A stretch of 12,381 nucleotides of DNA from the IMG/VR virus record IMGVR_UViG_3300010339_000161. One strand, given 5' to 3'. Below the pieces are notes generated by a model. It was given only the letters and a program-made list of their open reading frames with translations, was not told the DNA's origin and searched no databases. A program made the translations under genes and the position numbers. Below, piece after piece: positions 1,340 through 3,289 of the stretch; within the stretch, counting starts at the first letter, position 1; every line of letters starts with the position of its first letter. The DNA comes from a virus.

Positions 1340-1425
1340 TGGCTGGGACGAGAGGATTCGAACCTCTAGTGACCGTAGTCGGTGGGATCAGAACCCACTG
1401 GGGTTGCCAATTTTCCTACGTCCCA
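1340..1425 (-). tRNA. tRNA-Gln-like (anticodon CTG) with a 14-nt variable arm, CCA encoded
   Basis: Acceptor TGGGACG/CGTCCCA with G73-CCA; these are the E. coli tRNA-Gln end signatures. Anticodon arm GTGGG-TTCTGAT-CCCAC, T arm AGAGG-TTCGAAT-CCTCT. A 14-nt insert, CGACTACGGTCACT, lies between the anticodon and T arms and folds as GAC-TACG-GTC (UNCG-type tetraloop). 86 nt in total, which is class-II length. Confidence 0.7.
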
Positions 1426-1871: not shown

Positions 1872-1958
1872 TGGTACCCCCGACAGGACTCGAACCTGCA
1901 TTCCCTTTCGGGCAGGACGTTCGTAGCGTCCGTGGCGTCCAATTGCCGACACGGGGGC
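1872..1958 (-). tRNA. tRNA-Arg (anticodon ACG) with a 14-15-nt variable arm, CCA encoded
   Basis: Acceptor GCCCCCG/CGGGGGT, anticodon arm GGACG-CTACGAA-CGTCC perfect, T arm GCAGG-TTCGAGT-CCTGT, A73-CCA. Extra arm TGCCCGAAAGGGAA folds as CCC-GAAA-GGG (GNRA tetraloop). 87 nt in total; the D region is irregular. Confidence 0.65.
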
Positions 1959-1968
1959 ATCTAAAATT

Positions 1969-2055
1969 TGGAACCCGAGACAGGGGTCGAACCTGCATAT
2001 CTTTTCAGAACACCGCGTTCGAAGCGCGGGGCCTATCCATTCGGTCCACTCGGGC
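1969..2055 (-). tRNA. tRNA-Arg (anticodon TCG) with a 16-nt variable arm, CCA encoded
   Basis: Acceptor GCCCGAG/CTCGGGT (G1:U72), anticodon arm CCGCG-CTTCGAA-CGCGG perfect, T arm GCAGG-TTCGACC-CCTGT, T73-CCA. Extra arm TGTTCTGAAAAGATAT contains TCT-GAAA-AGA. 87 nt in total. Confidence 0.65.
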
Positions 2056-2543: not shown

Positions 2544-2620
2544 TGGTGCTCGCGGGCAGATTCGAACTGCCAACCTCATCCTTCGCAGGGATGCGCTCTG
2601 ATCCGTTGAGCTACGCAAGC
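2544..2620 (-). tRNA. tRNA-Arg (anticodon GCG), CCA encoded
   Basis: Acceptor GCTTGCG/CGCGAGC, D arm GCTC-AACGGATCA-GAGC, anticodon arm CATCC-CTGCGAA-GGATG perfect, T arm GGCAG-TTCGAAT-CTGCC perfect, A73-CCA. Confidence 0.85.
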
Positions 2621-2626
2621 TAAACT

Positions 2627-2696
2627 TGGTAGTCCCGTCCGGGTACGATCCGGAATCCCAGCCTTCGGAGGGCTGTGCCCTGTCCATTTGGACTAC
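2627..2696 (-). pseudogene. anomalous tRNA-Arg-like element (anticodon CCG) with a truncated D arm and nonstandard T loop ATCGTAC
   Basis: Anticodon arm CAGCC-CTCCGAA-GGCTG, T arm TCCGG-ATCGTAC-CCGGA and acceptor 3' strand CGGGACT-A-CCA are all good. The 5' acceptor strand AGTCCAA pairs at only 5 of 7 positions, and only about 12 nt are available for the D arm. It is either a D-arm-deficient tRNA or a decaying paralog. Confidence 0.4.
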
Positions 2697-2708
2697 GGAA
2701 CCAAACTT

Positions 2709-3210: not shown

Positions 3211-3289
3211 TGGGTGACAGGAGGGAATCGAACCCTCGAAACGACGCCTTCACAGGGCGCGGACACATCCCAACACTGCCGACTGTCAC
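3211..3289 (-). tRNA. tRNA-His-like (anticodon GTG); no G-1:C73 pair, CCA not fully encoded
   Basis: Acceptor GTGACAG/CTGTCAC plus C73. Anticodon arm GCGCC-CTGTGAA-GGCGT, T arm GAGGG-TTCGATT-CCCTC, D stem GGCA/TGTC with an 11-nt loop. The base at -1 is T. Confidence 0.65.

Follow-up and report, generated by a model that had tools for sequence, protein, structure and literature searches.

A 12,381-nucleotide (nt) stretch of viral DNA (IMG/VR record IMGVR_UViG_3300010339_000161; hereafter the window) encodes two adjoining 87-nt tRNAs with the arginine anticodons ACG and TCG, in each of which a 3-base-pair (bp) hairpin capped by a GAAA tetraloop is set in the variable region. An earlier note on this DNA had recognized both genes and their hairpins, and ARAGORN, the five-arm folds computed with RNAfold, and covariation among relatives all bear this out. 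In bacteria, textbooks confine a long variable arm to the tRNAs for leucine, serine, tyrosine, and selenocysteine (class II), and the arm serves annotation tools and some aminoacyl-tRNA synthetases as a class marker. Based on sequence comparisons, we conclude that the two are arginine tRNAs bearing an added arm, with charging predicted from recognition rules of bacterial arginyl-tRNA synthetase (ArgRS) that may not be those of the host. The genes are ordinary phage tRNA-Arg in identity and class-II-like in shape, and we consider it probable that both are working, arginine-accepting elongator tRNAs of a megaphage array, carrying an extra arm that has been selected.

Structure and covariation of the extra-arm tRNAs

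The ACG copy reads GCCCCCG-UGUCGGCAAUUGGACGCCAC-GGACG CUACGAA CGUCC-UG CCC GAAA GGG AAU-GCAGG UUCGAGU CCUGU-CGGGGGU-A-CCA and the TCG copy reads GCCCGAG-UGGACCGAAUGGAUAGGCC-CCGCG CUUCGAA CGCGG-UGU UCU GAAA AGA UAU-GCAGG UUCGACC CCUGU-CUCGGGU-U-CCA. The acceptor stems have 7 bp with G1:U72 in both (GCCCCCG/CGGGGGU followed by A73 in the ACG copy, GCCCGAG/CUCGGGU followed by U73 in the TCG copy); a reading with an 8/4 or 9/3 acceptor geometry was rejected, as the eighth pair would be U:U. Both copies have perfect 5-bp anticodon stems with the loops CUACGAA (ACG) and CUUCGAA (TCG), T arms of GCAGG-UUCGAGU-CCUGU and GCAGG-UUCGACC-CCUGU, and variable regions of 15 nt (UG-CCC-GAAA-GGG-AAU) and 16 nt (UGU-UCU-GAAA-AGA-UAU), respectively. 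For both RNAs, the minimum free energy (MFE) structure from RNAfold is also the centroid and is a five-arm cloverleaf with exactly these hairpins, in agreement with ARAGORN. The TCG copy passes the Rfam tRNA model (RF00005, gathering threshold 29 bits) with 35.1 bits; the model handles its hairpin as an insertion in the variable region and, in a check on anticodon placement to which the unmatched ACG copy does not contribute, keeps the anticodon in place. Weak Rfam matches to YrlA, skipping-rope, and mascRNA are sub-threshold, tRNA-like noise.

The lengths, anticodon loops, 5-bp anticodon stems, and hairpins are as the earlier note had described them; the D arms did not prove to be standard. 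In the D arm of the TCG copy, the Rfam alignment leaves one nucleotide bulged behind G10 and places a G13.A22 pair. A plausible model, in which one nucleotide following position 10 bulges out of the D stem, fits three subfamilies comprising few independent sequences (Table 1); it is based on inspection, the Rfam alignment of the TCG copy, and RNAfold of one ACG ortholog (L111; compared loci are designated by such numbers). An alternative D-arm pairing, GUC/GAC, which appears in the RNAfold MFE structure of the window copy, is unlikely, as it would sequester G18G19.

We found orthologs or paralogs of the window tRNAs on no fewer than eight further contigs from metagenomes, IMG/VR, or metagenome-assembled genomes (MAGs), among them the megaphage contigs IMGVR_UViG_3300032770_000001 and Ga0672865_0000005, of 455 and 465 kb. 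A metagenome scan for the arm together with the T-arm motif returned 119 loci, mostly ordinary Ser or Leu tRNAs, and yielded orthologs of the ACG copy in L083, L111, and L124 as well as a paralog with anticodon CCG and the arm CGC-GAAA-GCG in L034 and L129. Adjoining this paralog, and so independent of the search pattern, is an ACG/GCG pair whose T arm differs and whose extra arm is GAC-GAAA-GUC, and an ACG member in L131 has the arm CCC-GCAA-GGG. A first pattern used on IMG/VR (CGAA-N5-TG-N3-4-GAAA-N9-GGTTCGA) gave nine matches and no tRNA, being too specific in its requirement for UG after the anticodon stem; a later pattern identified further members in the IMG/VR contigs L177 (105 kb) and L178 (455,708 bp). 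In L139, a 5'-truncated copy lies at the start of a stretch taken from a 45-kb contig binned as Acidobacteriaceae; the binning of this relative with a bog Acidobacteriaceae MAG is only a hint at the host.

We tested covariation by aligning the helical segments of eight distinct sequences without gaps. Standard pairs are formed by 99.4% of stem cells, both partners change in 12 of the 20 pairs, and the three pairs of the extra arm all covary (CCC/GGG, UCU/AGA, CGC/GCG, and GAC/GUC). None of 500 shuffles reached the observed pairing values, and the pairing collapses once the partner strand is slid out of register. The acceptor, anticodon, and T helices covary, and the sequences have a 7-nt anticodon loop with U33, a T loop of the form UUCGAnn, and G18G19. 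Among the ACG orthologs, which are identical at 75–82 of 87 positions (76–81 when the window copy is compared with the others), the arm CCC-GAAA-GGG is invariant in five, and the differences fall in loops, at unpaired sites, at the discriminator, or in stems where they are compensated by the partner strand, as in the change of pair 6:67 from C-G to U-A or of the anticodon stem from GGACG/CGUCC to CCUCG/CGAGG; one stem change converts C-G to a U·G wobble at pair 4:69. Because the differences are confined to loops, unpaired sites, and the discriminator or are compensated, these genes encode a functional structured RNA rather than an artifact of tRNA-finding programs.

The same pattern of substitution bears on the idea that the genes encode RNAs with no role in translation (decoys for tRNA-binding defense proteins) or are decaying pseudogenes or relics. 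The failure of the ACG copy in the Rfam tRNA model, the high redundancy of the arrays, and the irregular tRNAs of acidobacterial polycistrons that are charged yet unused in translation (PMC5389517) could all be accommodated by this idea; however, compensatory evolution is seen in all four standard helices, and both the anticodon and T loops are intact, as are A20 and the encoded CCA. In addition, the extra-arm copy is the only ACG tRNA, and so the sole ACG decoder, in the arrays of the window, L111, and L124; in L083, L131, and L177 it is found alongside a canonical ACG copy. We regard decoys or relics as improbable.

Amino-acid identity

Identity was assessed by comparison with at least 250 distinct tRNAs from the same loci, with isotypes labeled by anticodon. 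The determinants of bacterial tRNA-Arg are A20, which is the principal one, C35, and G or U at position 36, and A, G, or U is accepted at position 73 (PMC9976931). Both window tRNAs have C35 and G36. An A directly after G18G19 is present in every one of the 38 canonical Arg tRNAs; an automatic rule finds it in 10 of the 11 extra-arm Arg tRNAs and inspection in all 11, the exception being a mis-picked GG. Of the 62 Leu, Ser, and Tyr tRNAs, only 1 has it (Fisher p = 2e-10). The discriminator is A73 in 23 of 23 Leu tRNAs and G73 in 37 of 37 Ser tRNAs; extra-arm Arg tRNAs have A or U, and the ACG orthologs switch between the two (A in the window, L083, and L111; U in L124 and L177). Canonical Arg tRNAs of these arrays have A (24), G (8), or U (6). 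In the acceptor stem, G1:U72 is invariant among the extra-arm Arg tRNAs, and the nearest neighbors of these stems belong to canonical phage Arg tRNAs (Arg-TCG of L064, GCCCCCG/CGGGGGU-U, and Arg-ACG of L107, GCCCCUG/CAGGGGU); the TCG copy of the window has GCCCG...CGGGU-U in common with a canonical tRNA of L131 that bears the same anticodon.

Codon usage agrees with these marks. CGN codons make up 84% of phage Arg codons (CGC 67, CGG 34, CGU 14, and CGA 14). In an alignment of a 393-amino-acid (aa) window protein with 44 homologs, Arg is the commonest residue at four columns that the window encodes by CGA (28, 31, 22, and 13 of the 44 homologs) and at one encoded by CGU (43 of 44), and none of these five columns favors Leu or Ser.

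We considered each class-II isotype as an alternative, and no Leu, Ser, or Tyr identity emerges. A class-II tRNA-Leu is rejected by U73 in the TCG copy, L124, and L177, by A20 throughout, by an anticodon of the form NCG rather than NAG or YAA, and by a D region that is not Leu-like (a GUGGCGGAAUUGGUAGACGC-like sequence with Y20 would be expected); the best score outside the family is 5–6 of 20. A body derived from tRNA-Leu by conversion of NAG to NCG is ruled out by A20, the discriminator, the acceptor stem, and the codon evidence. A class-II tRNA-Ser is rejected because G73 is lacking, the arm has 3 bp rather than 4–7 bp, and the acceptor stem begins with G1:U72 and C2-G71 rather than G1-C72 and G2-C71. 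Bacterial tRNA-Tyr (anticodon GUA, A73) does not have the anticodons ACG or TCG, and only the 1/3/3 geometry of the arm resembles the single Tyr tRNA in the data. A chimera with class-II tRNAs, suggested by an identical T arm, was discarded because the T arm was forced by the search pattern, and it is further weakened by the nearly identical T arms of canonical Arg tRNAs in relatives (e.g., GCAGGUUCGAAUCCUGC in Arg-CCG of L131).

The earlier note had raised the possibility that the genes were assembled on class-II scaffolds, and the comparison upholds this only loosely. Like the bacterial class-II tRNAs (Leu, Ser, Tyr, and Sec), the window tRNAs have a structured variable arm with a GNRA cap, which class-II arms often have, a weak, 3-bp or bulged D stem with a non-Watson–Crick 13:22 pair, and a 7/5 acceptor/T geometry. 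Unlike them, they are Arg-type in the anticodon, the A20-containing D loop, the acceptor stem, and the discriminator, and their D stem has an extra bulged nucleotide. The geometry of the arm also differs: the extra-arm tRNAs have 1–3 unpaired nt, 3 bp, a tetraloop, and 3 unpaired nt, whereas arms of 4–6 bp with 1–2 unpaired 3' nt are found on the Leu and Ser tRNAs of this data set.

These observations make it very improbable that the window genes are Leu, Ser, or Tyr class-II tRNAs with a mutated anticodon that insert Leu or Ser at Arg codons in the manner of nev-tRNAs. The long arm, A73 in the ACG copy, and the single change that separates NAG from NCG speak for such mis-decoding; yet A20 is present in all extra-arm Arg tRNAs, U73 is incompatible with both Leu and Ser, the acceptor stems are those of Arg tRNAs, no common Ser arm is as short as 3 bp, and CGA and CGU occur at conserved Arg columns. 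The nev- and nov-tRNAs of nematodes and other eukaryotes similarly combine a class-II shape with the anticodon of a class-I amino acid, but they have Leu identity, are leucylated, and mis-decode (PMC3333845), whereas in the viral or bacterial tRNAs described here the identity marks agree with the anticodon. The allo-tRNAs and selC* tRNAs also come from soil and peat metagenomes, Acidobacteria, and phage tRNA clusters, but the allo-tRNAs combine an 8/4 or 9/3 branch and a long, tetraloop-bearing D stem with a Ser identity conferred by G73 or U73 and the arm (PMC5389517); the window tRNAs have a 7/5 branch and a D loop of 8–9 nt with G18G19 and A20, and they lack G73.

Mis-decoding tRNAs of the kind just discussed have a genuine candidate elsewhere. 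A scan of 185,579 species-level genomes gave 40 pattern matches, four of them within tRNA genes: L139 and three Gemmatimonadetes MAGs. The latter, each a different species-level genome, encode 85–86-nt tRNAs with anticodon GCG on a textbook Leu body (L160 3842-3926(+), L170 862-946(+), and L172 4761-4846(+)), with the D arm GUGGCGGAAUUGGUAGACGC containing U20, A73, and a 4-bp arm capped by GAAA; L160 also carries a transfer-messenger RNA (tmRNA). These are candidates for Leu-charged decoders of CGC and CGU or for a lineage-specific change of identity. The window tRNAs are unlike them in lacking both U20 and the Leu D arm.

Distribution and possible roles of the extra arm

The window contains a third extra-arm tRNA, a tRNA-Gln(CTG) not included in the earlier note, whose arm is capped by a UNCG loop (Table 1). 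Its ortholog in L111 has the arm GUC-UGCG-GAC, a compensatory swap, and the ortholog in L131 has a 4-bp arm. In arrays that were not picked by the arm pattern, tRNAs of isotypes outside class II (class-I isotypes) with a structured arm account for 3 of 13 tRNAs in the window, 5 of 15 in L131, and 1 of 14 in L135. The isotypes with an extra arm are Arg (ACG, TCG, CCG, GCG, and CCU), Gln, Asn, Trp, and His, with one Cys and one Asp elsewhere, and the loop is a GNRA or UNCG tetraloop in 22 of 26 cases. The marks at the acceptor end fit the anticodon (U1-A72 and G73 in Asn and Gln, U73 in Cys); for His, C73 is found in L063 but U73 in L083.

We also surveyed a small control set of cultured phages for extra-arm class-I isotypes. 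None was found in Bacillus phage G; Roseobacter phage DSS3P8 (KT870145; L180 14914-15001) encodes an unannotated 88-nt tRNA-Lys(CUU) with the arm UGC-GAAA-GCA, Vibrio phage Achelous (MK796244; L181 14494-14580 and 16288-16380) encodes an 87-nt tRNA-Gly(UCC) and a 93-nt tRNA-Ile(UAU), both of them annotated, and Salmonella phage Arash (OQ632216; L182 8525-8608) encodes an unannotated 84-nt tRNA-Met(CAU) with the arm GGC-GAAA-GCC. Extra arms on class-I isotypes are sporadic yet widespread in phage tRNA arrays, and such genes are already present in public records, some of them annotated; in the open-access literature, we found no description of variable arms on class-I isotypes in phages. Standard models miss or mislabel these genes, as one of the two window copies fails the Rfam model and similar genes are unannotated in GenBank phage records.

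We posit that the two Arg tRNAs are cotranscribed with the rest of the array and then processed, their CCA ends being present in the genes, and that they would be charged by ArgRS via A20, C35, and G36. In decoding CGN codons, the ACG tRNA would read CGU, CGC, and CGA, presumably after editing of A34 to inosine, and the UCG tRNA would read CGA and CGG. The extra arm would be a selected module consisting of 3 bp, a GNRA tetraloop, and 3 unpaired 3' nt, set in the variable loop, which may be the one place in a tRNA where elongation factor Tu (EF-Tu), the ribosome, and class-I synthetases tolerate bulk. The arm is predicted to project from the variable-loop face and, accompanied by a D stem remodeled with a 1-nt bulge after position 10, would alter the shape of the molecule and not its identity. 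Class-I synthetases leave the variable-loop face of the tRNA to solvent.

Precedents for such uncoupling of shape and identity exist. Hairpins placed in the variable loop of class-I tRNAs are stably expressed, and a tRNA-Tyr fusion retains EF-Tu binding and protein synthesis (PMC5397188). The window tRNAs resemble these engineered hairpin and aptamer tRNAs (PMC5397188, PMC7590224), but those are artificial and the arm described here is natural, minimal (10 nt), and conserved. The type-I, short-loop tRNA-Leu of Streptomyces (PMC6614811) likewise uncouples class from identity, but in the converse direction, the arm being lost from a class-II isotype. As a side observation of the same converse kind, 75–78-nt tRNA-Leu genes without a long arm are present in L033, L052, L064 (500-577), L107 (6471-6545), and L180. 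If the extra-arm tRNAs of these arrays are charged with their cognate amino acids, then nature can uncouple the arm from identity, the arm is accepted by ArgRS and by several other synthetases, and giant phages diversify the bodies of their tRNAs and not the anticodon loops alone.

Why the arm would be selected is less certain. The occurrence of one isoacceptor family in structurally different scaffolds, to which the earlier note had drawn attention, is a conserved, selected feature. It is possible, and we advance it tentatively, that the arm belongs to a wider diversification of tRNA bodies by which the phage tRNAs evade enzymes that recognize tRNA shape or are told apart by them; such diversity would set the phage tRNAs apart from those of the host for defense nucleases or for a phage host-shutoff factor. 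We favor this explanation because same-anticodon duplicates within the array are just 62–71% identical, the array contains homing endonucleases and is linked to a nucleotidyltransferase, and the arrays of relatives encode proteins similar to histidyl-tRNA synthetase (HisRS), tryptophanyl-tRNA synthetase (TrpRS), and initiation factor 3 (IF3). The nucleotidyltransferase, of an RNA-repair type, is linked to the array in the window, in its relatives, and in phage DSS3P8.

By analogy, the context of the array fits an arms race over tRNAs, as in T5 and other phages (PMC10264068, PMC11555353, PMC11464382). Phages are known to escape tRNA-targeting defenses with anticodon-loop variants (PMC10264068), and T5 tRNA-Tyr and tRNA-Lys counter the retron PtuAB (PMC11555353) and PARIS (PMC11464382), respectively. 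As in those anti-defense systems, the phage isoacceptors described here duplicate host functions, differ from host tRNAs, and lie in arrays interspersed with homing endonucleases. The known escape tRNAs differ in the anticodon loop or stem, whereas the window tRNAs differ in the variable and D arms and have standard CUNCGAA loops. Since the loops CUACGAA and CUUCGAA are those of canonical Arg copies in the same arrays, which served as the reference, the known route of evasion by anticodon-loop mutation is not in use.

Several observations weigh against our interpretation of the two genes as charged tRNAs with a selected arm. The ACG copy is not reported by RF00005 even at E ≤ 10 in a search of 198 nt, a failure that reflects the strong deviation of its D arm from the usual form; drawing this D arm requires either a bulge or a stem of 3 bp, and the orthologs vary too little in the D region for a covariation test. 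The RNAfold z-scores are unremarkable (-0.7 to -1.7). The metagenome scan pattern fixed the GAAA loop and the T arm, and likeness among relatives in those parts is biased. With its A73, a pair compatible with A15/U48, and a long arm, the ACG copy may undergo some charging by leucyl-tRNA synthetase, to judge from its sequence. Finally, nothing ties the arm to any nuclease, and the tuning of different copies against different Arg-tRNA-directed nucleases, which the earlier note had offered as one explanation, stays conjectural.

Two further explanations are close rivals of body diversification, and we consider each of them doubtful to about the same degree. In the first, the GNRA-capped arm compensates structurally for a degenerated D stem, either bulged or of 3 bp with G13.A22, by stabilizing the tRNA core and has no role in conflict with the host. 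The ACG and TCG types of the window, the CCG type of L034, and the ACG type of L131 all combine the arm with a bulged, irregular D stem, and stable GNRA and UNCG tetraloops are typical of arms selected for folding stability. Natural class-II tRNAs likewise pair a 3-bp D stem with a long arm. However, the Arg-ACG of L034, the Arg-GCG of L129, and the Arg-CCU of L131 have the arm together with a regular 4-bp D stem, and compensation leaves unexplained why extra-arm copies are retained beside canonical copies with the same anticodon.

In the second rival, the arm is a neutral, tolerated insertion that was copied to neighboring genes by gene conversion, possibly promoted by HNH endonucleases. The two window copies share the 3' module AUGCAGGUUCGA..CCUGUC despite differing 5' halves (72% identity overall), and the TCG copy, with the acceptor stem and U73 of canonical TCG tRNAs such as that of L131, has the appearance of a chimera; in the window, L034, and L129, extra-arm Arg genes have an HNH gene or its remnant as a direct neighbor; and engineered insertions in the variable loop are tolerated. 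A neutral insert would be expected to decay or to vary in length, but the arm stem covaries, its cap is a stable tetraloop in most cases (GNRA or UNCG, as counted above), and the arm is kept across contigs whose proteins are only about 60–77% identical.

A more specific proposal, which we put forward as speculative and somewhat unlikely, is that a minimal, tetraloop-capped arm serves megaphages as a self tag on some of the tRNAs they encode (Arg, Gln, Asn, Trp, His, and others). Aminoacylation and decoding would be left intact, and proteins that read shape could tell phage from host tRNAs; candidate readers are host defense nucleases, a phage nuclease for shutoff of host tRNAs, the RlaP-type nucleotidyltransferase, and the truncated HisRS- and TrpRS-like proteins. 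With equal reserve, a self tag would constitute a strategy of escape or orthogonality based on the tRNA body and distinct from the one based on the anticodon loop. If charged as predicted, the extra-arm tRNAs would provide a testable handle on the relationship between phage tRNA arrays and tRNA-targeting immunity, and tRNA engineering could draw on them as natural scaffolds.

The tRNA array and its genomic context

Table 1. Coordinates of features in the window and proposed D-stem pairings
Feature	Position	Strand	Basis or remark
tRNA-Gln(CTG), 86 nt, extra arm GAC-UACG-GUC at ~1371-1380	1340-1425	(-)	ARAGORN, Rfam
tRNA-Arg(ACG), 87 nt, CCA encoded, extra arm	1872-1958	(-)	ARAGORN; five-arm MFE fold
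Extra-arm hairpin CCC-GAAA-GGG, ACG copy, tRNA positions 47-56	1903-1912	(-)	From sequence
Anticodon ACG, loop CUACGAA	1922-1924	(-)	
A20, directly after G18G19 in D loop, ACG copy	1938	(-)	From sequence
tRNA-Arg(TCG), 87 nt, CCA encoded, extra arm	1969-2055	(-)	ARAGORN; Rfam tRNA 35.1 bits; five-arm fold
Extra-arm hairpin UCU-GAAA-AGA, TCG copy, tRNA positions 47-56	2000-2009	(-)	From sequence
Anticodon TCG, loop CUUCGAA	2020-2022	(-)	Rfam alignment puts anticodon loop in same place
A20, TCG copy	2036	(-)	Rfam alignment sets A after G18G19
HNH homing-endonuclease gene, 165 aa	2033-2530	(-)	phrog_2255, E=8.9e-36; between Arg(GCG) and Arg(TCG)
tRNA-Arg(GCG), 77 nt, canonical	2544-2620	(-)	Rfam tRNA 67.3 bits
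tRNA-Arg(CCG), 76 nt, normal 4-bp D stem	2627-2702	(-)	ARAGORN; Rfam 47.1 bits with alignment
Second HNH gene	8538-8855	(-)	
RlaP-type "RNA repair pathway" nucleotidyltransferase	9527-10540	(-)	Adjoins MVP-like gene
Major-vault-protein (MVP)-like protein, Vault repeat and MVP shoulder	10842-12338	(-)	Cut by window end
D stem, ACG type: 10:25 U-A; bulge C; 11:24 G-C; 12:23 G-C; 13:22 C-G			Read from sequence
D stem, TCG copy: 10:25 G-C; bulge A; 11:24 C-G; 12:23 C-G; 13:22 G.A			Read from sequence
D stem, CCG and L131-ACG type: 10:25 G-C; bulge U/A; 11:24 G-C; 12:23 U.G; 13:22 G.A			From sequence

ARAGORN identifies 13 tRNA genes between positions 472 and 3525 of the window, all on the minus strand, which is home to all convincing window genes. 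In the order of transcription they are Trp, three His, Arg-CCG, Arg-GCG, the first HNH gene, Arg-TCG, Arg-ACG, Asn, Gln, Asn, and two Lys. Upstream of the array are phage-type genes encoding the 393-aa protein (phrog_10079), the second HNH protein, the RlaP-type nucleotidyltransferase, and the MVP-like protein. This protein-coding part is syntenic with L131 (a 33-kb ENA contig) and L135 (a 465-kb JGI contig), with amino acid identities of 77% for the MVP-like protein, 63–70% for RlaP, and 60–63% for the 393-aa protein, and in both contigs a homologous tRNA array lies downstream of the syntenic genes. Based on this synteny and the homologous arrays, the window is a piece of a megaphage-type genome. 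A megablast search with the whole window and a blastn search with the two tRNAs gave no match among 50,697 phage records, so that no cultured phage in this set is close in DNA. The match of the ENA contig L002 to the window is confined to the protein-coding part, and an IMG/VR locus (L001) encoding a homolog of the 393-aa protein with 31% identity is without tRNAs.

The MVP-like protein has 811 aa in L131 and L135, and the gene pair encoding it and the RlaP-type protein is kept upstream of the tRNA array in related megaphage contigs. An RlaP-like nucleotidyltransferase is also encoded in the tRNA region of Roseobacter phage DSS3P8. Within their arrays, L131 (12905-13372 and 19588-20277) and L135 (13090-13671 and 14872-15063) encode shortened translation proteins; those of the relatives are a HisRS-like fragment of 155–193 aa adjoining tRNA-His, a TrpRS-like protein of 229 aa, and a C-terminal domain of IF3 of 63 aa. 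The arrays of these relatives also encode an amino-acid permease. The HisRS-like gene is absent from the corresponding spot of the window.

The final 23 nt of the first HNH gene overlap the 5' end of tRNA-Arg(TCG). This gene is rich in CGA and CGU, with CGA accounting for 7 of its 15 Arg codons, and CGA is the codon that the adjoining tRNAs would read. Homologous HNH remnants lie between extra-arm Arg genes in L034 (295-513) and L129 (743-877).

Two further Arg tRNAs follow the first HNH gene in position. The earlier note had called the GCG copy canonical, and its Rfam score agrees (67.3 bits). The same note had reported a CCG copy that spans 2627-2696 and lacks most of its D arm; this does not hold, as the gene, which scores 47.1 bits, ends at 2702 and its D stem has the normal 4 bp. 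The odd part of the CCG tRNA is instead its T loop, AUCGUAC in place of the usual UUCRANN, in which positions 54 and 58 look swapped (A54/U58). The swapped T loop recurs in tRNA-Asp and tRNA-Val of L092 and in tRNA-His of L111. The three His genes of the window have pairwise identities of just 62–63%; the third, a tRNA-His(GTG) at 3212-3289 (-), is called by ARAGORN only, gives no match to the Rfam tRNA model, and encodes no full CCA.

About 70 metagenome loci (e.g., L012 3644-3728 and L017 8780-8864) contain a very common, solitary soil tRNA-Ser(UGA), GGAGGGGUCGCAUAAUGGUAGUGCAG...GGCCGAAAGGCUAUGCAGGUUCGAGUCCUGUCCCCUCCGCCA, with a short D region. This tRNA has a GAAA loop on its arm and the exact T arm of the window ACG tRNA, and it may represent a host lineage or an integration target.

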